DNA of 64,000 nt from contig JAHJTE010000001.1 in NCBI GenBank assembly GCA_018830005.1, positions 709,624 through 773,623 on the forward strand. The letters are read 5' to 3'. The notes under the pieces are model-generated. The model did not search any database. It had not been told where the DNA came from and saw only the letters and a list, made by a program, of their open reading frames with translations. The stretch is from Candidatus Omnitrophota bacterium (GTDB lineage Bacteria; Omnitrophota; Gorgyraeia; JAHJTE01). The position numbers and the translations under genes were made by a program. Positions within the stretch are counted from its first letter, which is position 1. Every line of letters starts with the position of its first letter. Shown here one piece after another: positions 7,631 to 60,831 of the stretch.

Positions 7631-7656
7631 GTTCATTCAAAAAAGGAGAATCAAAA

Positions 7657-8040
7657 GTGAAAAGGAAGTTATTGAGGAAGGATTTGAAAAATTTCAAGAA
7701 TTTAATAATAAAAAGAAAAGAAGAGATCCTTGAGGAATTAAGACACATAAGAGATGACACCTTGCGTCAGTCTCAGCGTGATGCTGCCGGAGATATAAGC
7801 GCCTATACCCTACATATGGCAGATATTGCTACTGATAGTTATGATCGTGAATTTTCTTTAGGTATCGCCTCCAACGAACGGAAGATACTTTATGAAATAG
7901 ATGACTCTTTAAAACGAATAGAAGAGGGAACATTTGGCATATGTGAATGCTGTGATAAGCCGATTGCGAAAACAAGGCTCAAGGTCCTACCCTATACGCG
8001 ACTGTGCAGAAAGTGTCAGGAAAAACTAGAGAAAAAATAA
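7657..8040 (+). CDS. DksA/TraR-family C4 zinc-finger protein
   Basis: GTG start. It has a coiled-coil N-terminus and a CECCDKPI...x17...CRKC zinc finger. It lies between ileS and lspA. Confidence 0.65.
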   Translation: MKRKLLRKDLKNFKNLIIKRKEEILEELRHIRDDTLRQSQRDAAGDISAYTLHMADIATDSYDREFSLGIASNERKILYEIDDSLKRIEEGTFGICECCDKPIAKTRLKVLPYTRLCRKCQEKLEKK

Positions 8041-8471
8041 TATTTTTTCTTTCTACCTTCCTTATTGTCCTCTTTGATTTTTTATCCAAGAGACTAATCT
8101 TAAATAGACTGTATTTTGGCGAGAGCATTCCTTTGATTCAGGGAGTTTTTCATATTAGCCTCGTAGCGAATCGCGGCAGCGCATTTGGGCTATTCAAGAA
8201 TCTATCCAGTTTCTTTACTGTATTTTCGATTATCGCAGTCTTGGTAGTTGGCTATTTATTTTTAACATCTAGGCAGACATCGAAGATATATCATCTTTCT
8301 CTTTCCTTGATTCTGGGCGGCGCCTTAGGTAATTTGATTGATAGGATCAGCCTTGGTTTTGTTGTCGACTTCCTGGATTTTAGAATCTGGCCGGTATTTA
8401 ATCTTGCTGATAGTGCAATAACTATCGGAGTCGGATTGTTAATCCTCCAGTTATTACATAAAAAGAAGTAA
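8004..8471 (+). CDS. lspA: lipoprotein signal peptidase II
   Basis: Four TM helices, ANRGSAFG and FNLADSAITIGVGLLIL motifs. The start is uncertain because the ORF overlaps the upstream gene by 37 nt. Confidence 0.85.
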   Translation: MQKVSGKTREKIIFFLSTFLIVLFDFLSKRLILNRLYFGESIPLIQGVFHISLVANRGSAFGLFKNLSSFFTVFSIIAVLVVGYLFLTSRQTSKIYHLSLSLILGGALGNLIDRISLGFVVDFLDFRIWPVFNLADSAITIGVGLLILQLLHKKK

Positions 8472-8498
8472 GCGATTAAGTTATAAGGACTAGGTTTA

Positions 8499-9263
8499 AT
8501 GTATCCAGTCATTTGTAGAATAGGCCCATTTACTTTGTATTCTTATGGCTTGATGTTTGCCTTTGCCTCTTTAGTATGTCTTTTCTTCGTAGTCAAAGAA
8601 GGTAAGACAAAAGGTATCCAGAGTACTATATTTTTTGATATTTTCTTCTGGACGCTTATAAGCGCAATAGTGGGCGCGCGCCTTCTTTATATCCTGACAA
8701 ATCTCAATCTTTATCTAGCAGAGCCTAAGGAAATCTTGAATATACACCATGGCGGCCAATCATGGTTTGGCGGTTTTGTCTTTGGCATGTTAGCTGCCAT
8801 AATTTTTATCAGAAGAAAAGGACTATCCTTTTTTTATATTGCAGATATCTTTGCGCCTTATCTTGCCTTGGCTCAAGGTATTGGTAGAATAGGTTGTTTT
8901 CTAAACGGCTGTTGTTATGGAAGGTTGAGTAATTCAATCTTTGCAATAGAATCCTTCTCGCATTCCGGCGCCAGACATCCTACGCAACTATATGCCTTTT
9001 TTAACCTGATATTAATTTTTGTTCTTTTATCCGCCTATAAAAAAAGGCGAAAAGAGATCATCCCTGGTGAGGTCTTCTGTCTATATCTCATCCTTTATGG
9101 TATCAATCGCTTCATAGTTGAGTTTTTCCGCGCTGATACCATTTCTACGCCCATCCTTACTTTAAGTCTTTTTCAGATATTTTCAATTATATGGATACTC
9201 AGCGCAGTTATTGCCTACTTAATTTTAAAAACAAAACATTATAATGGAAAAGCGCGAGTTTAA
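8499..9263 (+). CDS. lgt: prolipoprotein diacylglyceryl transferase
   Basis: GPFTLYSYGLMFAFA N-terminus, the GARLLY and GRIGCFLNGCCYG signature. The lspA-lgt pairing supports the call. Confidence 0.9.
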   Translation: MYPVICRIGPFTLYSYGLMFAFASLVCLFFVVKEGKTKGIQSTIFFDIFFWTLISAIVGARLLYILTNLNLYLAEPKEILNIHHGGQSWFGGFVFGMLAAIIFIRRKGLSFFYIADIFAPYLALAQGIGRIGCFLNGCCYGRLSNSIFAIESFSHSGARHPTQLYAFFNLILIFVLLSAYKKRRKEIIPGEVFCLYLILYGINRFIVEFFRADTISTPILTLSLFQIFSIIWILSAVIAYLILKTKHYNGKARV

Positions 9264-26305: not shown

Positions 26306-26352
26306 ATATTTTACAGGGCCTAATTTTTATGGTATACTTGAGGTAACATTGA

Positions 26353-26468
26353 AAAAGGCAAACCAGTCGTAAGGCTGGGACGCAAAGCTAAAGGGCCTTG
26401 TGAAAGGGTAGCCAGTTACCAATGAGAATAACCTATTTCAGGTGACTGGAATAGGTTTTATTTTTTTG
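26353..26468 (+). ncRNA. c-di-GMP-I (GEMM) riboswitch-like leader with a terminator expression platform (copy 1)
   Basis: GGCAAACC-AGTC-GTAA(GNRA)-GGCTGG-GACGCAAAGC-TAAAGGGCC matches the GEMM core (Vc2: GGCAAACCAUUCGAAAGAGUGGGACGCAAAGCC). It is followed by hairpin CCTATT...AATAGG plus a T-run at 26430-26468. Confidence 0.8.
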
Positions 26469-26578
26469 GCCGGGACTAATAAATGTCAAGCCAGAGGAAA
26501 ACGAAATTATTATTATTTTTCTAGAAACTGGGTTGATATGATAAGTTCAATCAAGGCCAAGAGAGGAGGTTGTTAATT

Positions 26579-27086: not shown

Positions 27087-28856
27087 ATGAAAAGATCACA
27101 ACAAATTATACTTATTATCCTTGTCGGTTTATTGTTTTATTTTAATAGTCTTTTTAATGGGCTTGTTTGGGATGATGAGTTTTTAATCAAGGACAACCCT
27201 TATATCAGAAGCATTCCGACTGCTTTTTCTTACGCCTTTTCTAATGATCTATTCCCGGGAGAGCTACTATTTAAGCGGACTAATTATTATCGGCCCCTGC
27301 AGACACTAAGTTACTCTCTAGATTTTTTTATCTGGAAAGATACGCCCTTTGGTTTTCATCTCGCTAATTTAATCCTGCATATTATTAATGCCCTTTTAAT
27401 ATATTTAATTATTTCCTGTCTTTATAATCTGCCTTTGGTTTCTTTTGTTTGTGCCTTATTCTTTGTAGCCCATCCTATTCATCATGAGGCAGTGAGCTAT
27501 ATCTCTGGCCGTGCAGATTTATTGGCAGCATTTTTTATCTTGAGCTCTTTTTATTGCTTCCTTAAATATAGACTCGAGAATATAGCTGTGCGGCGCAATT
27601 ATTTCCTTGTTTTATCATTTATTTGTTTCTTTTTAGCACTTCTTTCTAAGGAGTATGCACTTATCCTGCCTTTCCTATTTTTATCCTTTGATTTTTCTTT
27701 TCAAAAATTAAATAGAAAAAATCTAGGCCAATACGTTTTCTTCTTACCCCTGATATTCCTCTTTATCATGTTGCGACTTTCTGCTTTAGGATTGGATAAT
27801 TCATTGCTGGGCGGCAGATATGCACATTTACTTTGGCAGGAATTGCCGATTCGTTTTTTTGGTTTTATAAAAAGCATACCGCTTTACTTAGGTATTTTAA
27901 TTTTTCCGGTTGATTTGCATATGCGCAGAGCCTTTCCCAGACCTGCAGGCCTTTTCGATCCTTTAGTATGGATTGGTATTTTTATTTTGCTCAGTTGTTA
28001 CTTCATTTTTTATAAAAGGAGAAAACAGGAGCCGCTTTATTTATTTTTGTTTCTTTGGTTTTTGATTCCTGTAGTTTCTCAATCACAGCTAACGCTTTCC
28101 GGATTTGGCTTTGCCGAGCACTTTTTATACCTTGCCTCAATGGGCGTCTTCTTTGCTTTTGCAAAGGTTTTTGTGGGCCTTTTTCTTAAATTTAAAGCAA
28201 GGGCGCAAAAACAGAGATTTATCGTTACTATACTTTTAATCTTACTTAGTTTTTATGGCAGCTTGACGAGTGTCCATAATCTTAACTGGAAGGATAGTCT
28301 GACATTCTATAAGTGGACGCTGAAGTTTTCACCCGAGAGCATTAAGTTGCGCATAAATCTAGCCAGAGAGTATATTGCCCTAGGTAGGGATGATCTGGCC
28401 TTAGTTGAATTCTTACGTGCTAAAAAGTTATTAGAGCAAGTGGAGGTATCTAAATATAAAGATAAACCAATTTTAGATTGGACTCTGAATGAGGCGATAG
28501 TAGTCGGCTATTACAATGTGGCTGTGCTTCATGCCAGCCAGAAAGATTATACAAGGGCGGAGCAGGAATATCGGCTGTCCCTTGCGATTAAGCCAAATTT
28601 TAATAAGGCACGTAATAATCTAGCTGCCTTATTGACCAAGCTAGGCAGAGATAAAGAGGCGATAGAGCAATTGTCGCTTGTTTTGAGTTCTGATCCAGAA
28701 GATTTAAAGGCATATTATAATCTGGGCGCAATCTTAGCGAATCTAGGCGAAGATGAAAAGGCAAGGCAGGTCTGGCAAGATGGCTTAAAGATAGATCCGG
28801 ATGATGCCAAGATTGGCGATGCGCTTGCGAGGCTCCTGGAAGAGAAGAAGAGATGA
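27087..28856 (+). CDS. PMT/TMTC-like GT-C glycosyltransferase domain (DUF1736-like, NGLVWDDEF motif) fused to a C-terminal TPR array
   Basis: About 11 TM helices and an acidic DD(E/F) motif in the first periplasmic loop, as in protein O-mannosyltransferases. C-terminal TPR repeats (YYNVAVLHASQKDYTRAEQEYRLSLAIKPN...). Confidence 0.65.
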   Translation: MKRSQQIILIILVGLLFYFNSLFNGLVWDDEFLIKDNPYIRSIPTAFSYAFSNDLFPGELLFKRTNYYRPLQTLSYSLDFFIWKDTPFGFHLANLILHIINALLIYLIISCLYNLPLVSFVCALFFVAHPIHHEAVSYISGRADLLAAFFILSSFYCFLKYRLENIAVRRNYFLVLSFICFFLALLSKEYALILPFLFLSFDFSFQKLNRKNLGQYVFFLPLIFLFIMLRLSALGLDNSLLGGRYAHLLWQELPIRFFGFIKSIPLYLGILIFPVDLHMRRAFPRPAGLFDPLVWIGIFILLSCYFIFYKRRKQEPLYLFLFLWFLIPVVSQSQLTLSGFGFAEHFLYLASMGVFFAFAKVFVGLFLKFKARAQKQRFIVTILLILLSFYGSLTSVHNLNWKDSLTFYKWTLKFSPESIKLRINLAREYIALGRDDLALVEFLRAKKLLEQVEVSKYKDKPILDWTLNEAIVVGYYNVAVLHASQKDYTRAEQEYRLSLAIKPNFNKARNNLAALLTKLGRDKEAIEQLSLVLSSDPEDLKAYYNLGAILANLGEDEKARQVWQDGLKIDPDDAKIGDALARLLEEKKR

Positions 28857-50499: not shown

Positions 50500-52227
50500 T
50501 TATTTAGTAGGAGGCCTTTCTGGTATGAGGAAAACACACACCTTGTTTCTACCTGTCTCTTTGGCTTTATAAAGCGCCTTGTCAGCGAAAGAGATTAATT
50601 CTTTAGGGGTCTGGGCATCTGTCTCAGTTAAGGATGCGATTCCTATACTGATTGTTACCTTTAGAGGCTGGTTCCCTTTATAAGGGAAGTTAAATTCTTC
50701 AATAGATTTTCTTAGACGTTCAGCGTAGATACTGGCGCCTTTTGCAGTTGTATTAGGCAAAATACAGCAGAATTCTTCACCGCCGTAACGGGCCACGACA
50801 TCCACTCTGCGGCTGCTCTCCTGGATGATCCTAGCAACATTCTTTAAGATTACATTTCCTTCTTCATGCCCGTAAGTGTCGTTTACTTTTTTAAAGTGGT
50901 CAACATCCATTATCAAAAATGTAAGTTGAGTATTTTCCTCTTTTGCGTGTGCAAATTCAGAATCAAGTTTAAGTATTAGATAGCGATGTACAAAGAGTCC
51001 TGTGAGCCCATCAGTAATCGCCATAGTTTTTAAGATTGCTGCCTCAACCAATAAGCGCATATATTTGTATGTCTCCGTGCCCAGATACAAAAATGCGGCA
51101 ATAAATATCGGACCAAAGTAGTCAAAGGATAAGTTTTGATAGGAAAGCAGAAAGGAAACAAGCATAAGCCCTAAAAGCTCTAGCGCCAAAAGAAGGGAAC
51201 CTTTAAGGATTGAGAGTTTATAGGTGAATATTGCGGTGCAAATTGCAACTATTAGAATCAACAGGATTGAGAAAATCTCAGGCGTCTCTTTTAGAAAATT
51301 TCCTGATAAGTACATTAGGATTTCATTGGCATTGATTACTACCCCTGGCATCAGGCCCAGGGGGGTAGGGTAGACATCGTGAAAGATTTCAGCAGTCGTG
51401 CCGACGAGAATAATCTTTTTGTGGATACTTGCTTTACTAGCAGTTTTATTGATTATTTTATGAAAGGGGATGATTTCAAAGTCTTTATTTTTTGCCTGGT
51501 AATTAATCAATGCTGTGCCTTTTTCTGAAAGAGGAATGATTACTTGCTTTGTTGTTTTTGCCACATCTTTTAGATTGATAAGCATTCTGCGATTATTAAG
51601 TGAGACGTCGTTTTTAATATCGCTTTCGTGATAGCGCAAAAAGGTCTTTAGTCCGAAAGAGGTTTTTAGTATTCCCGGAAGGTCTTTTCTTGGAAACAGG
51701 AGGCGGCAATTACGCACGGTTAAATCTTTATCGCGTGTCTTGTTAACAAAGCCAAAGCCTAAGGCTGCTTTTTGCAAAGGCAGATAAGGTTCATTATAAC
51801 TTTTATCCGGGGCAATGTAACTTGCAAGAATTACATTGCCTGCATTTTTAATTGCCTCAGCCAGTGCCGAATCATCATCCTTATTATTGCTTTCTCCTGT
51901 AAATACCATATCCAGACTAATGATCTTTGGTCTGTATTCATTTAGGTTATCAATAAATTCACTCAAGAAACTTCGTGACCAGGGCCATTTTTTCTGCAAG
52001 ACCATGAATGATTCGTCATCAATAACAACAAGGCTGATCTCTTTTAATTCTTTGGGTTTAGGTTTTAACTGATAAGTAAGGCGATTAAACAAATCAGCAG
52101 TTTTTAACGAAAGGATATTTAAAAAAGTAATTTTATGGGAGGAAAAAGAATAAGCCAGGCTTATAATCATCGCCACACAGATTACCTTTATCAGATTCTT
52201 ATCCCAGGATATCTTTTTCTTTTTCAT
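50500..52227 (-). CDS. CHASE2 sensor-domain diguanylate cyclase (canonical GGEEF, RxxD I-site present)
   Basis: N-terminal periplasmic CHASE2-like region, three C-terminal TM helices, GGDEF domain with DVDHFKKVNDTYGHEEGN and RRVDVVARYGGEEF. Confidence 0.85.
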   Translation of the reverse strand: MKKKKISWDKNLIKVICVAMIISLAYSFSSHKITFLNILSLKTADLFNRLTYQLKPKPKELKEISLVVIDDESFMVLQKKWPWSRSFLSEFIDNLNEYRPKIISLDMVFTGESNNKDDDSALAEAIKNAGNVILASYIAPDKSYNEPYLPLQKAALGFGFVNKTRDKDLTVRNCRLLFPRKDLPGILKTSFGLKTFLRYHESDIKNDVSLNNRRMLINLKDVAKTTKQVIIPLSEKGTALINYQAKNKDFEIIPFHKIINKTASKASIHKKIILVGTTAEIFHDVYPTPLGLMPGVVINANEILMYLSGNFLKETPEIFSILLILIVAICTAIFTYKLSILKGSLLLALELLGLMLVSFLLSYQNLSFDYFGPIFIAAFLYLGTETYKYMRLLVEAAILKTMAITDGLTGLFVHRYLILKLDSEFAHAKEENTQLTFLIMDVDHFKKVNDTYGHEEGNVILKNVARIIQESSRRVDVVARYGGEEFCCILPNTTAKGASIYAERLRKSIEEFNFPYKGNQPLKVTISIGIASLTETDAQTPKELISFADKALYKAKETGRNKVCVFLIPERPPTK

Positions 52228-52435
52228 TGTAAAATTAGTCTAGCATAAAAGTGGGGTTTAGGCAAGGCTAAAATCTCTGAGTATGTTTTTATAACTTTAA
52301 CATTAGCAATAGGTTGCATTAAGGATATCTTTTGTTTTCAGCTTGAAATCATGCATTGTCTATGTTATACTTAAATTGTTAGGAAATAAGCTCGAAAAAA
52401 CCCTGAATCTAGTGTTCTGTATAGGGCATTAGTCG

Positions 52436-52604
52436 GAAAAGGCAAACCATTTGAAAGAATGGGGCGGATTGAAGTGTCTGGCTTGATAAGAGCCGCAAAG
52501 CTAAAAGAGCCTACGTCCTGAATTTTTAGGATAGGGTAGTCAGCTGCCGAGATTAAGGTTTGTAACCCTATTCTTTTGTAAAAAAATAGGGTTTTTTATT
52601 TTTA
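52436..52604 (+). ncRNA. c-di-GMP-I (GEMM) riboswitch-like leader with terminator (copy 3, extended variant)
   Basis: GGCAAACC-ATTT-GAAA-GAATGG-GGCGG[...GGCTTGATAAGAGCC]GCAAAGC. Terminator AACCCTATTC...AATAGGGTT plus T-run directly before the ATG at 52617. Confidence 0.8.
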
Positions 52605-52616
52605 TGAGGCCTTAAG

Positions 52617-53282
52617 ATGAAAAGAAAAGGTTTTAGTTCATTAGAGTTAATAATTGGCTTAGCCCTTACGGCTATTATGGCTACTATGGGCATTGTTAAT
52701 TTCAGTAGCCAGGATGCGTTATTGCTTGATGCTGCAGCCCAAAAAGTTGTCTCTGACTTAAATTACGCCAGGATGTTGGCTATTGACATGGGAGAGCAAA
52801 GCGAATATACTTATTCTGGAGGCGAAGCAGGCGAGGAGGCAGGCAACTTTGTGGTTATGGATTTTAGTGATGAGGCTTCAACTCTTCCTAGTTCTTATCG
52901 CGCTGTTCCTGCGTTACAGCTGCCTGCAGAAACTGGAGATCCTGTTGGCACAAGAATTAGTGTGTTATATGAACCGGTAGTGAGAAATATTACAGAAAAA
53001 GTTGAACTTTTTTTTCCTAGTGAAGATGATTTTAAACAAGTCAAGATACAATCTGTAGACTTTGGCGATGACGGATCAGGCGGCGCTTATAACGCTGTTC
53101 GTTTTGAAGGACCTACAGGCAGACCAATGAACGGTACCTGGGTTATGGGGAATGATGAAAATGCTTATTTTTCAACTGATACAGGATTGGGAAGTTCAGG
53201 TGGCATTATTGTTGTAGAGTATAATGGCAGAACTAAGATAGTCAGGATTTCTCGTATCGGAAGGATTACTATTGAAAATTAA
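52617..53282 (+). CDS. prepilin-type pilin-like protein, KG|FSSLELIIGLALT
   Basis: ATG with a GAGG RBS. Class III signal peptide. 221 aa with a Gly-rich C-terminal domain. Confidence 0.7.
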   Translation: MKRKGFSSLELIIGLALTAIMATMGIVNFSSQDALLLDAAAQKVVSDLNYARMLAIDMGEQSEYTYSGGEAGEEAGNFVVMDFSDEASTLPSSYRAVPALQLPAETGDPVGTRISVLYEPVVRNITEKVELFFPSEDDFKQVKIQSVDFGDDGSGGAYNAVRFEGPTGRPMNGTWVMGNDENAYFSTDTGLGSSGGIIVVEYNGRTKIVRISRIGRITIEN

Positions 53283-53790
53283 TAATATTAGTAACAGATT
53301 GCATAAACTGTTAATTTTAAAAGCTCCATCAGGTCTATCACTGATGGAGCTTTTGGTTGTTATTGTCATTATCGCAGTATCCTTATTGCCTCTCTATGCC
53401 TTATTCAATCAAGCAATACTAGCCCATGTAACTGCTCAAGTTATGACTACTTCTTCTTATCTTGGCCAGTATGCTATGGAAAGTATGTTGTCCAAGGATT
53501 TTTTTGAGCTTCTTAACGAACTTGATAGTGATGTGCATTCTTATGGCAACGATACTGTCTTTGCTGGCCCTTTTTCTAAGTATAAATACACAATAGAGGT
53601 TGATGCTATTGATCCTGAATACGGTGGCGCTGGAGGGGATTTAGCTGATATAAGTGCGAGAGTTAGTTCAGCTGATGGCGTTGCAAGCGGCAGTTATCTG
53701 CGTATCTATGTAAGGATAACAAATGATATTCAGCCCGGTAAGCAATTAGAACTCTACAGTATAGTCACACCAGCAGGAGACGGGTATTGA
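53272..53790 (+). CDS. prepilin-like pseudopilin, ...APSG|LSLMELLVVIVIIAV
   Basis: The track start is a TTG overlapping the upstream gene, so the true start is uncertain. Methylation-type motif with L at +1. Confidence 0.55.
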   Translation: MKINNISNRLHKLLILKAPSGLSLMELLVVIVIIAVSLLPLYALFNQAILAHVTAQVMTTSSYLGQYAMESMLSKDFFELLNELDSDVHSYGNDTVFAGPFSKYKYTIEVDAIDPEYGGAGGDLADISARVSSADGVASGSYLRIYVRITNDIQPGKQLELYSIVTPAGDGY

Positions 53791-53791
53791 T

Positions 53792-54331
53792 ATGAAAACA
53801 AAAGGGTTTACTCTTATAGAAATGGTTATTAGCATTGCGGTTTTAGCTATTATTGCTGTAGTGCTTACCCCTATTGTATTACAATCAATAGATTTATTTT
53901 TGATGTCCAGAACTCAAGAGGTACTTGCTAATGAATCAAGATTTGCCATGAATTGGATGTCAGAAGAAATAAAAACAGAATGCGCAAGTTTCAATACTAT
54001 TGACGGTATGAGTTTGACATTTACAACCTGTGCAACGTGTGATCCTCCCAATACACCGATTTCCTATGATTGGGATAGTGCTAATAATAGATTGATTCGA
54101 ACAGTTGGCGGAGGAGACGACAACGACGATATTTTAGCTGAAAGAGTAAGTTTTGCAGAGTTTCGGGTTTTTGATACAGTTGATTTAGATATGTCGGCAG
54201 GACAGACTAACGTGAGTGATTTCAGTACGTTTGATGTAAGATTTGTGCAGATAAGATTAGCGATAACAGATGATACTGGAACAAAGGCCTATAGCCTTGT
54301 AACTCGGATTATGCCGCGTTATCTGCAATAG
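53792..54331 (+). CDS. prepilin-type minor pilin, KG|FTLIEMVISIAVLAII
   Basis: ATG start, AGGAGA RBS, canonical GFTLIEM motif. 179 aa. Confidence 0.7.
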   Translation: MKTKGFTLIEMVISIAVLAIIAVVLTPIVLQSIDLFLMSRTQEVLANESRFAMNWMSEEIKTECASFNTIDGMSLTFTTCATCDPPNTPISYDWDSANNRLIRTVGGGDDNDDILAERVSFAEFRVFDTVDLDMSAGQTNVSDFSTFDVRFVQIRLAITDDTGTKAYSLVTRIMPRYLQ

Positions 54332-54334
54332 CCA

Positions 54335-56917
54335 GTGTTGATGATGCTAAGTTTTAAATTTAACAGAAAATCCTTTGCCTTAATTCTGGCGCTGTGGATT
54401 CTGGTTGCCTTTAGCGTTATTGCCATGACAGCGATGTATGTGGTAAGCCGCAAACTTGATGAATATGTAAACCAGATAAATTCGCTTAAAGGTCAGTATT
54501 TAGCAGAATCAGCCAAGAATTACTTTTTAGAATATGTCACACCTTTTGATAATGATTTGATGGGCAACCCCCAGATAAACAAGGAATTAGGAGGAGAAAA
54601 CTTTCAATTTAGTATAAATTATGACACTGACCCTGCTCCTACAGCACGAACTGCAAGTATGACCCTTACCGGAAGCTCTCCTGGAGTTAACCGCTTTATA
54701 AGCTTGAATATAATTGAAGATGAAAATCAGAATGATGAAATAATTAAAAAAGTTAAGAAATACAATGCGGTTATTAAGAATCAGAACCCGATTACCTTAG
54801 AGGATGTGTGTATCACCAGAGGTTGTACTGAGTGGTATACTGCGGCTGATTGTGTTGACAACTGTCCTTCAACCAGTGGCGCTACTCCCGACGGTTGTTG
54901 TGAAGTATGTTATAGCTCGAGTAACTGCACTGATGCCTGTCCTTCAACCAGTGGTGGTAGTCCGAGTGGTTGTTGTGAGGGCTGTTATAGCTCAAGCAAC
55001 TGCACTGATGCCTGTCCTTCAACCAACTACTGTTGCGAAGGATGCTACAACTCAAGCAACTGCACTGACTCCTGCCCTTCAACTAGTTCCTGTTGCGAAG
55101 GATGCTACAACTCAAGCAACTGCACTGACTCCTGCCCTTCAACTAGTTCCTGTTGCGAAGGATGCTACAACTCAAGCAACTGCACTGATACCTGTCCTTC
55201 TACTAGTTCCTGTTGTGAAGGCTGTTATAGCTCAAGCAACTGCACTGACTCCTGCCCTTCAACTAGTTCCTGTTGCGAGGCATGTTATAGCTCAAGCAAC
55301 TGCACTGACTCCTGCCCTTCAACTAGTTCCTGTTGTGAAGGCTGTTATAGTTCTTGTTTTAGTGCTGTTACTAATAATTATTATAATGGGGATTGCAGCC
55401 AAGACACTGCTGCTAGTTGCTGTCTTTCTTCTGTGCCTTCAGGCTATGAATACTGTTGTGAGGCAGTTTCCTGTCAATGTCAGACAGCAGCATATCCGTG
55501 TAAAACTGTGTGTTGTCCAGAGTCAGACTATCCAACTTGGAGTACGACTTGTGATGCTAGTTATAGCTGCGATTCAAATTGGGAGCAGTCTTGCATTGAG
55601 ACGGGATGGTGTGCTTGCTCATTAGAAAGAGAGACTGGTTTTATTCTAGCAGGCGGGGAACCACAATGTCCGTGTTGTCTAGAATATGGGGATTGGACTT
55701 GTAAGACTATAAAGTTAGCATGTCCAGGCGGATGGAAGACCTCCTGCAGTAACTACGAATGTAGTAATTATGATTGTAGTGATTACGAATGTAGTAATTA
55801 TGAGTGTAGTAATTATGAATGTAGTAATTATGAGTGCAGAAACTACGACTGCAAAAACTATAAATGTAAGACAGAAGATTGCACAGCATGGCGTTCGCCA
55901 ACATTTCATAGCACTACCTACTTTGACGTATCAAGCGTCCAAGTAACTACAAACTATTCTCCCACTGCGAATCAGGCAATATGGGGAGAGTCCACTGACG
56001 CTAAGAACCTCTATGTAAATGGTAGCCTAGACCTTGATAATATCAGTGATATTACAAAATATGGTGTCTGGGGTGATGCCTATGCAAAGGATGCAATAAC
56101 TGATACTATTGGTGCAATACATGGTAGTGAGTTTGAGAATTGTAACTCAGTCGCAAATCCTGATGAATGTAGCTGGTCAGTTACAAAACCCGCAATAGAT
56201 ACAGCTTATTATGATAGGTTATTTGTTAAGGCGCAGGCTATGACTGCAGGCGATTTGCCAGATATAACCACTACCTCTTCAGGCTCCTCTGATCGACAAC
56301 TAAAAGGAAAGAATATTTTTGTAAATGGCAATGTTACTATTAGTACTGATAGCGATAATCCCTTGGAAGGCCCAGGGAATATTATTGCTATTGGAACAAT
56401 TACAATTAGTAATAGTGCTCATATTGAAGAGAATATTGGCCTTATCAGTAAAACCGCAGTTAATATTGGTCAGTCAGCGCGTGTTGGTAGGGCCAAGACC
56501 GGGGATACAAGTGGTGAATTTATTCAAGGAAAAGGCGTATTTATCTATGTTGCTAGAGATGCAGGCACAACTGTAGTAGATTTAGGATATTATTCCAAGA
56601 CAAAGGCCTATATCTTAGTAGTGCCGCATACATCTGGTACCACAGAAAATACAATAAAGGTTAGTGACTACCATGATGATGCCTCTCCTGATGATAATCG
56701 TTATGCCCGGCTTCAGGGTTTAATCTATACTGAAGGTCTTCATGATGAGACTGGTGAGGTTTACGGCTATATTTATACAGACAATCTAACCAATGACCAG
56801 ATAGTAATGTTGCGGCTGCTTGAGGATGATGTTTCTGGAACTCCTGTTGAATCACAGCGGCCCATAAAAATCAGAGGCCTTTATAACATTGGCATAGCCA
56901 ACCTTACTTATAAATAG
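54335..56917 (+). CDS. 860-aa PilX-N-like pilus protein with a hyper-Cys-rich tandem-repeat stalk and a beta-helix-like C-terminal domain
   Basis: GTG start. N-terminus FALILALWILVAFSVIAMTAMYVVSRK (PilX_N-like). About 8 copies of CCEGCYNSSNCTDSCPSTSS and about 8 copies of CSNYE. The C-terminus (NIFVNGNVTISTDSD...GNIIAIGTITISNS) resembles the 500-aa PilX-like protein. Confidence 0.7.
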   Translation: MLMMLSFKFNRKSFALILALWILVAFSVIAMTAMYVVSRKLDEYVNQINSLKGQYLAESAKNYFLEYVTPFDNDLMGNPQINKELGGENFQFSINYDTDPAPTARTASMTLTGSSPGVNRFISLNIIEDENQNDEIIKKVKKYNAVIKNQNPITLEDVCITRGCTEWYTAADCVDNCPSTSGATPDGCCEVCYSSSNCTDACPSTSGGSPSGCCEGCYSSSNCTDACPSTNYCCEGCYNSSNCTDSCPSTSSCCEGCYNSSNCTDSCPSTSSCCEGCYNSSNCTDTCPSTSSCCEGCYSSSNCTDSCPSTSSCCEACYSSSNCTDSCPSTSSCCEGCYSSCFSAVTNNYYNGDCSQDTAASCCLSSVPSGYEYCCEAVSCQCQTAAYPCKTVCCPESDYPTWSTTCDASYSCDSNWEQSCIETGWCACSLERETGFILAGGEPQCPCCLEYGDWTCKTIKLACPGGWKTSCSNYECSNYDCSDYECSNYECSNYECSNYECRNYDCKNYKCKTEDCTAWRSPTFHSTTYFDVSSVQVTTNYSPTANQAIWGESTDAKNLYVNGSLDLDNISDITKYGVWGDAYAKDAITDTIGAIHGSEFENCNSVANPDECSWSVTKPAIDTAYYDRLFVKAQAMTAGDLPDITTTSSGSSDRQLKGKNIFVNGNVTISTDSDNPLEGPGNIIAIGTITISNSAHIEENIGLISKTAVNIGQSARVGRAKTGDTSGEFIQGKGVFIYVARDAGTTVVDLGYYSKTKAYILVVPHTSGTTENTIKVSDYHDDASPDDNRYARLQGLIYTEGLHDETGEVYGYIYTDNLTNDQIVMLRLLEDDVSGTPVESQRPIKIRGLYNIGIANLTYK
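54858..55355 (+). repeat. in-frame 60-bp tandem repeat array (about 8 units; the two 5' units are 75 bp)
   Basis: Units 55021-55080, 55081-55140 and 55141-55200 are near-identical (ctgttgcgaaggatgctacaactcaagcaactgcactgactcctgcccttcaactagttc). The period coincides with the 60-column lines of the sequence listing. Confidence 0.9.
55745..55865 (+). repeat. in-frame 15-bp tandem repeat (tgtagtaattatgaa, about 8 units) encoding (CSNYE)n
   Basis: Read directly. Protein: CSNYECSNYDCSDYECSNYECSNYECSNYECRNYDCKNYKC. Confidence 0.85.
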
Positions 56918-56953
56918 CCTTCCTAGATAGACCCCAAATTTCAAACCAACTAC

Positions 56954-56995
56954 TAATCTTTCAATGGCTGCGCTGTTGGTTTTTGGATTTATTTG
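56954..56995 (+). terminator. possible terminator after the 860-aa gene
   Basis: AACCAAC...GTTGGTT stem with a long loop, then TTTTGG. Confidence 0.3.
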
Positions 56996-57175
56996 TTTCT
57001 GTATTTGTAACTTTAATATAGCAATATGTTGTATAAGATAAAAAAATATTGCTTAGCCTTGAAATATAACAGGAGGTATGTTATATTTTATGTTGACAAT
57101 TTAGAAATGAAGCGAAAAGTCCCGAATCTAGTAGTTTAGGTGTCGGGATCCCTTCTAAAATGCTAAATATTTTAG

Positions 57176-57343
57176 AAGGGGGCAAACCATTTGAAAGAAT
57201 GGGGCGGGCCGAGTGCCTGGTCCTAATAAGGACCGCAAAGCTAAAGAGCCTAAGTCCTGAATTTTCAGGATATGGTAGTCAGTTGCCGAAGTCAAAACAG
57301 CAATTTACTACCCTATTCTTTTAAGTGGAATAGGGTTTTTTTA
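57176..57343 (+). ncRNA. c-di-GMP-I (GEMM) riboswitch-like leader with terminator (copy 4, extended variant)
   Basis: GGCAAACCATTTGAAAGAATGGGGCGG[GCC...GGTCCTAATAAGGACC]GCAAAGC. GGTAGT at 57264 can pair with ACTACC of the terminator 5' arm. Terminator CCCTATTC...GAATAGGG plus T7. Confidence 0.8.
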
Positions 57344-57362
57344 TGTGAGGATAAGACTAAAG

Positions 57363-57632
57363 ATGGACAAGAAAGGTTTTACACTAGTTGAGATTATGAT
57401 TGTAGTCGGGGTTCTTGCGCTGCTAATGGCTATTTCATTGCCGATATTATCAAGAATGCGCCAAAATGCAAATGAGGCAAAAACCCAGGCTGAACTTAAT
57501 TCACTGTATAAGGCAGTTAACATGTATTATGCCTATAATGGCAGATACCCTAGCGAGTTGAGCGAATTAAGTGATTATATTACAATAGCTAACATTGATA
57601 ATAAATACGAGTTGAATTCGGATCTACCTTAA
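57363..57632 (+). CDS. short type IV pilin (89 aa), MDKKG|FTLVEIMIVVGVLALLMAISLP
   Basis: ATG at 57363 with an AGGA RBS. The track start at 57345 is a GTG inside the terminator T-tract. Shares the paralogous pilin motif with the pilin at 26579. Confidence 0.8.
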   Translation: MDKKGFTLVEIMIVVGVLALLMAISLPILSRMRQNANEAKTQAELNSLYKAVNMYYAYNGRYPSELSELSDYITIANIDNKYELNSDLP

Positions 57633-57652
57633 GAGGACTTGGTGAAGAGAAG

Positions 57653-58264
57653 ATGATTAAGAATTGTTTAGTCTCCATATTTAGTTTGATCTTGCTGCTA
57701 GGCTTATCCTTAAGTTCTGCAGAGGCAGCTTCTAATAATACCTGGTTGATTAAATCAAAGGCCACTGGTTCAGAACAGGTATTTGCTGTGTGGATGGATG
57801 GTCGGTTGAGTTCTGGCACACCTGTCTCAGAGGACGGGATTATTAGTAGTGTAACCTTTAGTGGCAGTCAATATCTTTCTGCCAAGGAATGGGTTACAAA
57901 TGAGCAGACTGGTGCAGTCCGCACTTATTGGAGCAATAAACCTATTGTCTATGGAATGGAATCAGAAGGAGGTACATACAGGATTGTCTTATCGGCAAAG
58001 AATTATGTTGGTAGCACTGGTTGGAGCCTGCCAAAGGGATATAAGAATTTTAATGTCGTTGTTAAAGTAGCTAATAAGAAGGTTGGTACAATTCTCCTAG
58101 AGGCAAGTGATACAGAGGTAAAGACAGGGTATCTGGTCCTAAATGATATCGAATCAGGCGTTCATCAGGTCAAACTAATCTGGAATAATGATAGCTACAA
58201 GCCAGCAAAGAAGTGGGATGCAAATATAGAAATCCAAAGTGTAGCATTTGAGAAGATTGAATAA
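57653..58264 (+). CDS. hypothetical secreted beta-rich protein
   Basis: Signal peptide LLLGLSLSSAEA|AS. 203 aa, no recognisable motif. Co-transcribed 20 nt after the short pilin. Confidence 0.45.
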   Translation: MIKNCLVSIFSLILLLGLSLSSAEAASNNTWLIKSKATGSEQVFAVWMDGRLSSGTPVSEDGIISSVTFSGSQYLSAKEWVTNEQTGAVRTYWSNKPIVYGMESEGGTYRIVLSAKNYVGSTGWSLPKGYKNFNVVVKVANKKVGTILLEASDTEVKTGYLVLNDIESGVHQVKLIWNNDSYKPAKKWDANIEIQSVAFEKIE

Positions 58265-58345: not shown

Positions 58346-58374
58346 TTGAAATAAGCCTTTATTTGTGTTATACT
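58346..58374 (+). promoter_or_regulatory. candidate promoter TTGAAA-N17-TATACT upstream of GEMM copy 5
   Basis: Read directly. Confidence 0.4.
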
Positions 58375-58399
58375 TTAGTTGACAATTAGTTAAGTACGA

Positions 58400-58530
58400 A
58401 AAGGGCAAACTATTCGAGAGAATAGGACGCAAAGCCAAGAGTCCTTAGCATCTTTAGATGTCAAGGATTGTCTGGTTACCGAAATTAAAAATGTGGACCT
58501 ATTCTTTTCGAAGAATAGGTTTTTTATTTA
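58400..58530 (+). ncRNA. c-di-GMP-I (GEMM) riboswitch-like leader with terminator (copy 5)
   Basis: GGCAAACTATTCGAGAGAATAGGACGCAAAGCC is almost a base-for-base match to the Vc2 aptamer core, with a GAGA GNRA loop. Terminator GACCTATTC...GAATAGG plus T-run. Confidence 0.85.
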
Positions 58531-58606
58531 TATAAAGAAAATTGCTTGAAGCTTATGTTTTATTGCGGTATACTATTAAGCGGTATATTACTAGGAGGAT
58601 CTAAAA

Positions 58607-60316
58607 ATGAACAGGAATCTTAGAAAGGGATTTAGTAGTATCGAATTTATCGGTGTGCTTACGGTAATTGTTGTAATTTTGGCATTTTCTATCCCTAAAA
58701 TTGTATCTACAAAAATAGCAGCAAACGAAACTGCCGCAATCAGCGATCTCTACAAATTGGGATCAGCGTTTGAAGCGTATCGCTCAATATACAGTACTTA
58801 CCCAAGAGATTTTTCCGACCTTAACAACCTTGCTCCGGATTTAATCGGGCAGGAGTTTGTCTCAGTCTCTGGGGCAGAATACGCTAAAGGCGGATATGCC
58901 TTTAAGATTGATTCTGTTGATACTGATATTGTGCCTACATATGCCTTTAGAATCTATGCTGAGCCAAAGGTTTCTTCGTTCAGGGTTACTGCTGGTCTTG
59001 TTAGCGGTATTCCTACTGGTAGACGCGTATTTAAGTATGGTGTGAATAAGGCAGACGCTAGTGTTGGTTATTATGCTAAGAATCCTGGAACGAGTCAGCC
59101 TGAGGCAATCTCCGACTGGATTCCTCTTACAGGAGTTGAAGGACGGGGTTTTATGGGCACATCAACAACTACACCACCTCCACCACCTCCACCACCAACT
59201 TCACCTCCTACTACAACAACTACAACAACTACTACTACAACGTCCGATACTGCACTTACATTTACAACGCAGACTATTACAACTACTATAGCCACTATAA
59301 CCACTACAACAACTACAACTAGCACAACGACTACTACACTAGGGCTAATCGGAACTACTACCACTGTACAGACAACAACAACCACAGATGTAACAGAAAC
59401 ACTTCCTGGTCTTCTTAGTTGTCCTTATGTTCATGTTTGGGATGGAAGTCAGTTTATAAAAGACAATGATATTATTCCGGGTGGAAATACTCATGAATAT
59501 ACTGATTACTATAAATTAACCAAACAGGTTAGTGCGGATAAAAATGGTGACTTATTATTTAAGATTATTGAACCTTTGGATGAAAAATCTTATCTTGATA
59601 AGGCACATCTAATAGAGGTTAGACATCCTAAGTTTGTTAATATTGCTCCTTCGCCAGAGGGTGAGATGTTCACTTATAAACAAAGGGCCTTAAGGCGACC
59701 AAGAAAGGCCATTGATACAAATGGTGAAGATATTCTAAGTCTTGTTTCTAGCAAGGGCAAAGGTGATTATCATGGTCTTCCTGGAGATTTTGTTACATTT
59801 GATTTTGGTAAGATTAAAAAAGCACCTAATGGCATGCGACTTATCTTAAGCTCTGACTTAGAATATGCCTATGCTGCTAAAAGCACGAAGTCGCTGCATA
59901 TTGAGGTGTTTCTTGAGGATAGCTATTGGCAGGAGATCTCTATAGTTCATCCTCATGAGGCCTGGGATATCTGGGCAATAGATCTAGCTTCATTTAAAGA
60001 CAAGATTGCTGGTGAGCTTAGGGTAAAGATCAACTGGAAAAATGAACACAAGCTAGATTTTGCACTTTTAGATATGTCAGCCCAGGTTCCGATTAAGATT
60101 AGAGACCTAGCCTTGGTTGAGGCAAAACACAATAAGAGATTCTTCAGTAATGTAATGTCTCTACTTAAGAAGTCTGATAATAGATATGCCAAGATGGTTA
60201 AAGGCGATGAGATATCTCTTAGATTTAGAGGTTCTAGCAAGGGCTTAGAGCCTAAAGAGGTGTTAAGTTATATCTTTGTCAGCGAGGGCTTTTATAAGCC
60301 GCTCATTAAGAAATGA
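58607..60316 (+). CDS. pilin-domain fusion protein: prepilin N-terminus + pilin globular head + Pro/Thr-rich linker + roughly 330-aa C-terminal domain of unknown function
   Basis: KG|FSSIEFIGVLTVIVVILAFSIP. A paralogous pilin motif (AISDLYKLGSAFEAYRSIYSTYP), then a P8 and poly-T linker, then a novel domain starting CPYVHVWDGSQ. Confidence 0.7.
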   Translation: MNRNLRKGFSSIEFIGVLTVIVVILAFSIPKIVSTKIAANETAAISDLYKLGSAFEAYRSIYSTYPRDFSDLNNLAPDLIGQEFVSVSGAEYAKGGYAFKIDSVDTDIVPTYAFRIYAEPKVSSFRVTAGLVSGIPTGRRVFKYGVNKADASVGYYAKNPGTSQPEAISDWIPLTGVEGRGFMGTSTTTPPPPPPPPTSPPTTTTTTTTTTTSDTALTFTTQTITTTIATITTTTTTTSTTTTTLGLIGTTTTVQTTTTTDVTETLPGLLSCPYVHVWDGSQFIKDNDIIPGGNTHEYTDYYKLTKQVSADKNGDLLFKIIEPLDEKSYLDKAHLIEVRHPKFVNIAPSPEGEMFTYKQRALRRPRKAIDTNGEDILSLVSSKGKGDYHGLPGDFVTFDFGKIKKAPNGMRLILSSDLEYAYAAKSTKSLHIEVFLEDSYWQEISIVHPHEAWDIWAIDLASFKDKIAGELRVKINWKNEHKLDFALLDMSAQVPIKIRDLALVEAKHNKRFFSNVMSLLKKSDNRYAKMVKGDEISLRFRGSSKGLEPKEVLSYIFVSEGFYKPLIKK

Positions 60317-60336: not shown

Positions 60337-60831
60337 ATGTTTAGAAACAATAGTCCCGTTAGAGAGCCTAACAAAGCAAAGAGGACTCTGACGGGACTTA
60401 CTTTATTTGAGGCCCTATTAGTTACGGCGGTAATCGGGATTGTTCTTGTCTTGAGTATTCCACACCTATCCAGGATGAAAATCCAGGCCAATGAGACTGA
60501 TGCAATAGCCTCTTTGGGCAAGATAGCCGCAGCCATGGAGGTTTACCGTATCCTCTATAAAACATATCCAGACAATTTAAATAAGCTCTCAATAGTCAAT
60601 CCTACTCTTTCAGCAGGACCATTGTTGAGTAGTGGCTCAAAAAGTGGCTATAATTACCGGATTGAAATTGAAGATGAGAGTTTTGATCCGAATAGCTTTA
60701 CTGTGATTGCAGAACCAAAACAGCCGCTTAAAACTGGTGAACATAGGTTTAAAGTTGACCAGAATGGAATCATATATTCTACAGACTCTCAGACCTCAAT
60801 AGTCTGGATGCCTCTGGGCGGTGCAATCTAA
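60337..60831 (+). CDS. prepilin-type pilin paralogue (long leader, ...LTG|LTLFEALLVTAVIGIVLVL)
   Basis: Shares the IASLGKIAAAMEVYRILYKTYP motif with the other paralogues. 164 aa. Confidence 0.65.
   Translation: MFRNNSPVREPNKAKRTLTGLTLFEALLVTAVIGIVLVLSIPHLSRMKIQANETDAIASLGKIAAAMEVYRILYKTYPDNLNKLSIVNPTLSAGPLLSSGSKSGYNYRIEIEDESFDPNSFTVIAEPKQPLKTGEHRFKVDQNGIIYSTDSQTSIVWMPLGGAI

Follow-up and report, generated by a model that had tools for sequence, protein, structure and literature searches.

What is a large domain of no described family doing at the end of a type IV pilin? The question is raised by a single open reading frame (ORF) at positions 58607–60316 (+) of a 64,000-nucleotide (nt) stretch of DNA (hereafter referred to as the window) from a Candidatus Omnitrophota bacterium (assembly GCA_018830005.1, contig JAHJTE010000001.1, positions 709,624 to 773,623). 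Its 569-residue product, as read from the sequence, consists of a pilin module, a spacer and a C-terminal cargo domain. Modular type IV pilins, which explain how simple filaments gain functions, include Streptococcus sanguinis PilB, with a von Willebrand factor A (vWA) module, and PilC, with a concanavalin A (ConA)-like lectin module (PMC8179133, PMC9934059). Most known cargo modules are already-annotated domains, and Raynaud et al. 2021 predicted many further cargos that lack database signatures (PMC8179133). In Omnitrophota, type IVa pili have been reported to be almost universal, with a proposed role in host attachment; the same report mentions neither modular pilins nor control by cyclic di-GMP (c-di-GMP) (PMC10066038). 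Here we find that the three-part architecture is conserved in at least nine other proteins and that the cargo domain belongs to a large family of surface-protein modules, and we consider it reasonably probable that the fusion acts as a modular type IV pilin, presenting a binding module on the pilus, and that it is probably repressed by high c-di-GMP.

The protein is made up of the following parts, with the ribosome-binding site listed first.

58593–58599 (+): Shine–Dalgarno sequence AGGAGGA, 7 nt 5′ of the ATG, read from the sequence.
58607–58630 (+): class III leader peptide MNRNLRKG, with a predicted prepilin peptidase cut after Gly8 (motif KG/FSSIE, the slash marking the cut).
58631–59158 (+): pilin module, residues 9 to 184, defined by weak GspG and PilA matches, paralogues in the window and identity with orthologues.
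59159–59419 (+): Thr/Pro-rich spacer, residues 185 to 271.
59420–60313 (+): cargo domain, residues 272 to 569 (298 residues), which begins with CPYVHVWDG and extends to the stop codon.

A preliminary description of this DNA had recognized a class III prepilin and pilin head from a family of paralogues, joined by a Pro/Thr spacer to a large domain; this outline stands, with the pilin part (residues 1 to 184) confirmed by its motif and by paralogues in the window and with the large domain named by no curated library, except that the domain measures 298 residues rather than about 330. Because the ORF spans 569 codons in DNA of 39% GC and has conserved orthologues, it is far beyond what chance would produce, and it is real.

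A pilin joined to an unrelated gene could also be an assembly chimera or a frameshift artefact over the low-complexity Thr/Pro region. The DNA at the junction is indeed of low complexity with short repeats and is error-prone, and the exact length of the spacer could be wrong. Against such an origin, a search with the C-terminal domain retrieved five proteins of 471–512 residues, each with a prepilin N terminus, a spacer and the cargo domain, and the independent assemblies that carry the fusion come from JGI, ENA, NCBI and Logan. A genome scan with an alignment of close members added a sixth orthologue in an Omnitrophota metagenome-assembled genome (MAG; locus L007, 7323–9020), and two more distant fusions (P0018 and P0021) have an identical architecture. 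The same order of pilin, spacer and domain is thus carried by at least nine other proteins (P0001–P0005, P0007, the L007 orthologue, P0018 and P0021) from independent samples and pipelines, and their spacers are not low-complexity Thr runs. All fusion proteins bearing an organism name are from Candidatus Omnitrophota, including P0021, as named by NCBI. Because the orthologues share the architecture with differing spacers, the junction is biological; the misassembly that the preliminary description wished to see checked by read pairs is excluded by this recurrence, and we give an artefact next to no chance.

The cargo domain of the window protein has no match in Pfam or NCBIfam, nor in the PDB by phmmer or by profile, and the preliminary description had recognized no motif in it, yet it is not an orphan. 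An exhaustive profile search retrieved 2,789 representatives of clusters at 50% identity with E ≤ 1e-3, of which 318 reach E ≤ 1e-30; this result supersedes a first, word-indexed homology search that returned 5 relatives only and falsely hinted at rarity. The matches run end to end, in proteins of 334–2,228 residues, and among the top matches 122 of 155 copies of the domain occupy the extreme C terminus (at most 15 residues from the end). The public names of the members are all ‘hypothetical protein’, and the named hosts include Candidatus Omnitrophota, Micrarchaeota, Nanoarchaeia, Bathyarchaeota, Heimdallarchaeota, Chloroflexota and Syntrophobacter. Mostly, the domain is found at the C terminus of secreted surface proteins, the hosts being Omnitrophota, DPANN and other archaea. 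In none of 69 members is it covered by a Pfam or NCBIfam model, which places it in no curated carbohydrate-binding module (CBM) or lectin family, and the partner domains are extracellular modules: PPC, PKD, CARDB, Laminin_G_3, NosD/β-helix, FG-GAP, Big_1, fn3 and the peptidases C25, C1 and C13. Some members place the cargo domain ahead of a C-terminal transmembrane anchor or of a tail of the type IX secretion system (T9SS) type; the domain is thus displayed as a passenger and does not itself serve as the anchor. The gene neighbourhoods of the domain in archaea gave no functional clue. We set aside the NCBIfam model ‘TafC fimbrial protein’ as an identity for the cargo: its three matches equal in number the members with a Laminin_G_3 domain (three), and hence probably come from that partner.

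The members share the signature [GS]-C-P-[YF]-[VIL]-x-x-W-[ND]-G-x-x-[YF]-x-x-D-N-[ND]. Cys272 is 96% and Pro273 99% conserved; many Asp, Trp and Tyr positions and His340 are conserved as well. A structural model of the cargo predicted by AlphaFold2 from a 53-sequence alignment is all-β and confident (pLDDT 93.4, pTM 0.90), providing the structure prediction that the preliminary description had called for; a first model from 6 sequences was mediocre (pLDDT 66.6), and its fold matches were not used. The confident model weakly matches β-sandwiches of the CBM35, CBM51, APC10, PP2-lectin and phage tail-fibre types. The window protein has no cysteine besides Cys272, which is therefore unpaired, and the family alignment has no second conserved Cys column, on which ground we rejected a disulfide at this position. 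A Cys–Gln thioester was rejected likewise, as the Gln frequent in the family at position 433 is a Glu in the window protein and variable in orthologues.

The free Cys272 would leave open a catalytic or reactive role, and the cargo could then be an enzyme, such as a Cys-dependent hydrolase or transferase that acts on envelope polymers and is delivered by the pilus to a target surface. Such an activity would fit the near-invariance of this sole Cys, which has no conserved partner, and the strong conservation of Asp331, His340, Asp484, Asp489, Asp524 and an Arg at family-consensus position 553. Modular pilins with predicted peptidase modules are known (PMC8179133), and the two-jelly-roll enzymes PNGase F and PHM are among the weak fold matches. 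By contrast, neither sequence nor fold places the domain in an enzyme family, and the match to a common one that the preliminary description had named as grounds for refutation is absent; Ser or Tyr replaces the Cys in a few members; and the Glu or other residues at the family Gln in the orthologue group of the window leave no conserved Cys–Gln thioester pair. Moreover, the domain is often a C-terminal accessory to true catalytic domains (C25, C1 and C13), a position typical of binding domains. We therefore regard an enzymatic cargo as unlikely and a binding module as the better description.

Does the N-terminal part belong to a pilus? At the N terminus (MNRNLRKG/FSSIEFIGVLTVIVVILAFSIP), a short basic leader ends in Gly (−1), Phe and Glu occupy +1 and +5, and a hydrophobic helix of the expected length (about 20 residues) comes next, as in a class III signal. 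Profile matches of the pilin module are weak and below threshold: TIGR01710 (GspG) at 4.1e-5, and Myxococcus PilA at 1.2e-3 over residues 7 to 186. Two pilins of the window are paralogues of the module: one starts downstream, at 60337 (39% identity over 114 residues, E 1e-20), and the other at 26570 (33% over 94 residues, E 4e-12). Paralogues in the window do match Pfam N_methyl or ComP_DUS. A search with the pilin module alone gave no matches at E ≤ 1e-6, a threshold too strict for a short, divergent query. Between the window protein and its orthologues, the pilin modules are 33–42% identical and the cargo domains 52–64%, that is, the carrier is less conserved than the cargo. The window encodes type IV pilus (T4P) machinery, comprising PilB, PilC and PilMNOPQ. 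As in the definition of modular pilins by Raynaud et al. 2021, the extra module is not specific to T4P biology, for its family is found mostly on non-pilin surface proteins.

The class III signal and its helix might nevertheless serve only as a secretion or membrane anchor, like a pseudopilin or an archaeal bindosome component, with the domain working at the envelope or in the periplasm. The best NCBIfam match of the pilin module is GspG, a pseudopilin of the type II secretion system, the same cargo is found on transmembrane helices and T9SS tails in other proteins, and a bulky cargo may pass a secretin poorly. However, the gene lies within a complete set of T4P genes that includes a PilQ secretin, and has paralogues in that set; its constant pairing with a cargo-less pilin of the same type suggests co-polymerization; the long spacer is best explained by projection of the cargo from a fibre; and the characterized modular pilins are filament subunits (PMC8179133). 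We thus judge a mere anchor to be as unlikely as an enzyme, and prefer a filament subunit.

The spacer that would project the cargo comprises 87 residues in the window protein, of which 48 are Thr and 11 are Pro; the Thr/Pro run is coded chiefly by ACA and ACT, and the DNA contains short imperfect repeats of 9 and 12 nt. The spacers of the relatives comprise 25–60 residues and are acidic, rich in poly-Pro or poly-Gly, or Cys-rich, and poly-Thr occurs in the window orthologue only. Because orthologue spacers differ in both length and composition, what the design requires is a spacer, whatever its chemistry; the Thr-rich composition, and with it any glycosylation, is dispensable, as relatives use other spacers. 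In several relatives (P0001–P0004, P0010 and the L007 protein at 7323–9020), the spacer ahead of the domain contains one or two copies of a 14-residue four-Cys motif, C-x-G-x-x-C-S-x-C-x-G-x-G-C, where the window protein has poly-Thr instead; the motif also occurs in a Micrarchaeota protein. It may bind a metal or form a disulfide knot.

Two tandem polytopic membrane proteins with C-terminal tetratricopeptide repeat (TPR) arrays are encoded at 27087–28856 and 28853–30790 of the window, right after the putative major pilin gene. Both carry a ‘WDD’ motif near the N terminus, which we take to recall O-glycosyltransferases of the TMTC type, of glycosyltransferase fold C (GT-C). Pfam found no GT-C family in the N-terminal 400 residues of either protein, and thus lends no support to their description as two GT-C enzymes, which the preliminary description had suggested might target the Thr-rich linker.

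Comparison with known systems sets the window protein beside S. sanguinis PilB and PilC, with which it shares a class III signal, a small pilin module and a grafted C-terminal module also found in proteins outside pili, as well as an expected role in presenting a binding function on the filament, probably at its tip. It differs in that its cargo is of no described family and is carried on an 87-residue Thr/Pro spacer rather than a short loop, and in its probable diderm Omnitrophota host with a PilQ secretin, its riboswitch control and its cargo-less paralogue; moreover, it is known from sequence alone. CofB of enterotoxigenic Escherichia coli (ETEC) CFA/III and TcpB of the Vibrio cholerae toxin-coregulated pilus (TCP) are summarized in PMC8179133 as low-abundance, tip-located minor pilins of type IVb pili. 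They likewise combine a pilin domain, a flexible linker and C-terminal β-rich domains, although the window fusion shows no sequence or fold match to CofB and has no known counterpart of the secreted partner that CofB binds as a trimeric initiator. The tip adhesin TafC of haloarchaeal Tat-fimbriae, present at the tip at about 1 per 100 major subunits, also fuses a fibre subunit domain to a jelly-roll (laminin-G-like) adhesin head (PMC11821415), but in a different filament system that is Tat-secreted and assembled by donor-strand exchange.

With which genes does the fusion work? Two of its neighbours in the window bear on this question.

60337–60831 (+): small partner pilin of 164 residues, a cargo-less paralogue (Pfam ComP_DUS 2.7e-6), after a 20-nt gap from the fusion.
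50500–52227 (−): CHASE2–GGDEF diguanylate cyclase (Pfam CHASE2 8.8e-47, GGDEF 3.5e-49).

The partner pilin is probably co-transcribed with the fusion. A small pilin lies directly 3′ of the fusion in every locus examined and aligns across loci. In locus L013, the fusion P0018 (4804–6222) and the small pilin that follows it (6235–6708) are nearly identical over about 70 N-terminal residues (SLPVLSRVMANMRDQSAIASLWAILEAQKSYRDAQTPTTYAN...), so the partner is a cargo-less version of the same pilin; the resemblance suggests that duplication or gene conversion has recently acted between the pilins with and without cargo in that locus. The window cyclase has an intact GGEEF active site and RxxD inhibitory site (I-site). 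A CHASE2–GGDEF homologue adjoins the fusion in L001–L004, L006 and L013/L014, and downstream of the distant fusion P0018 come the small pilin and then the CHASE2–GGDEF gene.

In the Omnitrophota relatives the order is rpsA, a tRNA synthetase gene, the CHASE2–GGDEF gene (divergent), the fusion, the small pilin and a Peptidase_C25 gene coding for about 1,070 residues, followed by an rRNA operon where the contig reaches that far (L001, L004 and L007). A search of six-frame translations with a hidden Markov model (HMM) of the family revealed that the C25 protein itself ends in the cargo domain (L001, residues 774 to 1072; L007, residues 776 to 1070), the gene lying two positions 3′ of the fusion (L001, 8932–12150; L007, 9789–13001). 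The C25 proteins of L002, L003 and L006 also end in the domain, with matches clipped by the contig ends, and in L005 an upstream gene likewise ends in it; the same search found no copy in the C25 protein of L004. Pilin-borne and protease-borne copies form separate groups, with 37–44% identity between them, indicating that the fusion is old. The window has a single copy of the cargo domain and no C25 gene at the equivalent place, and its gene order differs: a minor-pilin cluster with its own riboswitches (52431–58264) lies between the cyclase and the fusion, and radical-SAM and GT2 genes follow the small pilin.

The sharing of one module by a protease and a pilin has a partial parallel. In Porphyromonas gingivalis, the gingipain adhesin (hemagglutinin) domains are common to RgpA, Kgp and HagA. 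There, too, one non-catalytic β-sandwich module is common to a C25 protease and a nearby-encoded adhesive surface structure, but we detected no homology between the two modules, the second carrier in Omnitrophota is a pilin, and the Omnitrophota C25 proteins examined have no T9SS C-terminal domain.

How is the fusion controlled? Upstream of the Shine–Dalgarno sequence lie three elements, which together with it and the ATG make up the full layout of a transcriptional riboswitch.

58346–58374 (+): promoter-like sequence TTGAAA-17-TATACT with an extended TG, 10 of 12 matches; only suggestive, as the site count does not exceed that of shuffled sequence.
58395–58484 (+): GEMM-clan aptamer, best model c-di-GMP-I-GGC (RF03167), scoring 68.9 bits (gathering score 59; E 3.4e-14).
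58495–58532 (+): intrinsic terminator, 10 nt 3′ of the aptamer, with a 12-bp stem (58495–58522) capped by a UUCG loop and followed by a T-run.

Promoter-like sites number 7 in the region, compared with 7.5 in shuffled sequence. A second such site, TTGAAG-17-TATACT at 58546–58574, is placed 3′ of the terminator and 5′ of the start codon, and transcription from it could escape the riboswitch. The aptamer belongs to the GEMM clan (CL00126), with membership defined by a covariance-model score above the Rfam gathering threshold, and the GEMM leader of its own that the preliminary description had proposed for this gene is thereby borne out. Aptamers of the RF03167 type also precede the fusions of L004 (60.8 bits), L007 (69.7) and L013 (61.8), with weaker matches in L001 and L006 (32, with an insertion); the terminator is kept in L004, L007 and L013, and its stems differ by compensatory changes. 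The leader also has an expression platform: the terminator with its T-run follows the aptamer, and the RNA could alternatively pair into an antiterminator.

All five aligned aptamers read CGCAAAGC, with an A where the RF03167 (GGC) consensus has a G. We take this variant-defining position to be the intercalating A47 in Vc2 numbering, which is G in the GGC variant. Because the leaders keep the A, the binding pocket looks canonical and c-di-GMP is likely to be the ligand, provided that this mapping of the position holds. RNA folding indicates that the 5′ arm of the terminator can pair with the 3′ strand of the first hairpin of the aptamer, and the resulting antiterminator intermediate is predicted at −35.3 kcal/mol, compared with −27.4 kcal/mol for the aptamer alone. 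Since the antiterminator uses this strand, an aptamer locked by its ligand would favour termination. We thus propose with modest confidence an OFF switch, in which high c-di-GMP would repress the operon.

In Clostridioides difficile, pilA1 is under a c-di-GMP-II riboswitch of ON polarity, unlike the OFF polarity proposed for the window, where, in addition, the partnership with a CHASE2–GGDEF cyclase is conserved. Control of pilin genes by GEMM/c-di-GMP-I riboswitches was described by Sudarsan et al. 2008, as summarized in PMC7266159. Common to such systems and the window is a cyclic-dinucleotide aptamer with a terminator platform directly 5′ of a pilin operon, whereas the window aptamer scores best on the GGC model and yet keeps an A at the variant position.

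Second-messenger control beside a GGDEF cyclase is a circuit classically tied to biofilm decisions, and the module might accordingly serve homotypic recognition, that is, cell–cell cohesion or biofilm formation within a population, instead of fastening the cell to a foreign host, to prey or to a polymer. As several surface proteins of one genome carry the module, pili could bind cells that display the module or its ligand. However, the OFF response suggested above is opposite to that of the usual biofilm matrix adhesin, and there is no evidence of self-association. The family is present in DPANN MAGs and in Omnitrophota, a phylum that has been proposed to depend on hosts (PMC10066038), and this distribution agrees at least as well with attachment to other cells, although the named examples are a handful. 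Recognition of the population’s own surfaces therefore seems very unlikely to us.

Taken together, these data point to a modular pilin that would work as follows. Prepilin peptidase would cut after Gly8, and the processed pilin module would enter filaments made by the T4P machinery of the window. The spacer would act as an extended, possibly O-glycosylated tether holding out the cargo. This portable extracellular module would serve for binding, its ligand most likely being a glycan or a molecule of a cell surface, and would give the pilus a specific attachment target. The C25 protease of the relatives shares the module, which suggests that pilus and protease would be sent to the same target. 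Co-expressed with the cargo-less pilin behind the aptamer and terminator, the fusion would be switched off when the ligand favours the terminator, with c-di-GMP supplied by the nearby CHASE2–GGDEF cyclase. Because PilQ would hardly admit filaments in which all subunits carry a folded 33-kDa head, the fusion is probably a low-abundance or tip subunit co-polymerized with its partner.

Several observations weigh against this explanation. The window fusion has no match to Pfam N_methyl (PF07963) at E ≤ 1, entry of the subunit into a fibre is argued from sequence, and passage of a 33-kDa domain through the PilQ secretin argues against dense incorporation along the shaft. The fold matches of the cargo are weak (TM-score ≤0.55 over about 150 residues; best PDB E-value 2.9e-4), our searches gave the domain neither a ligand nor a binding site, and the combination of an almost invariant, unpaired Cys with conserved His, Asp and Arg residues might point to catalysis instead of binding. 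On the regulatory side, the best Rfam model is the GGC variant, and the terminator fold is favoured even without ligand (−41.5 compared with −35.6 kcal/mol). As it is the global minimum even in the ligand-free state, the OFF direction is a kinetic argument only.

The modular pilin can be extended into a bolder scenario, in which the CPYxxWNG domain would be a new recognition module by which ultra-small, host-dependent prokaryotes (Omnitrophota and DPANN archaea) seize partner cells. In Omnitrophota it would be mounted on both a retractile type IV pilin and a gingipain-like lytic protease homing on the same ligand of the host envelope; its invariant free Cys might bond it to that ligand covalently or via a metal, and a dedicated circuit of CHASE2–GGDEF cyclase, c-di-GMP and riboswitch would arm and disarm it. 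As a whole, this scenario is speculative and, in our estimate, rather improbable.

Neither the concept of a modular pilin nor the control of pilin genes by riboswitches is new. What is new is a widespread, confidently folded and wholly unannotated family of surface domains; its mounting on both a pilin and a protease in Omnitrophota; a conserved module of cyclase, riboswitch, modular pilin and partner pilin; and, in the window orthologue, an unusually long, mucin-like spacer. Display on a pilus, sharing with an adjacent protease and a conserved second-messenger circuit provide functional handles on this family. Its hosts are uncultured Omnitrophota and DPANN-type archaea, in which attachment to other cells is suspected but the mechanism is opaque. 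To define the family, perhaps by creating a Pfam entry for it, and to find its ligand would annotate thousands of ‘hypothetical’ surface proteins, and the locus is a compact natural module of cyclase, riboswitch and pilin that is amenable to in vitro work.

Further aptamers and pilin-type genes were observed in and around these loci. The window holds five GEMM-clan aptamers, all on the (+) strand (26348–26424, 32144–32230, 52431–52551, 57171–57290 and 58395–58484), each just 5′ of a pilin-type gene: respectively, the putative major pilin at 26570, a 500-residue PilX-like protein at 32359, the minor-pilin cluster at 52617, a 95-residue mini-pilin at 57345 and the fusion. Cyclic-dinucleotide RNA control appears to extend to almost the entire structural repertoire of the T4P. 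No aptamer was detected on the strand of P0021, an independent Omnitrophota fusion; beside it, on the (−) strand of L012, tandem c-di-GMP-I aptamers (1421–1514 and 1572–1700; 62.9 and 45.9 bits) lie 5′ of a divergent gene of 97 residues. Directly 5′ of the fusion leader in the window, the mini-pilin gene (57345–57632; N_methyl 9.8e-8) is followed by a gene for a 203-residue signal-peptide protein (57653–58264) with a weak CBM60-like match (E 5e-3), and this pair has its own riboswitch. After three minor-pilin genes (52617–54331), an 860-residue protein encoded at 54335–56917 has an N-terminal hydrophobic segment and no Pfam hit, and may be a PilY1- or PilX-like tip component.

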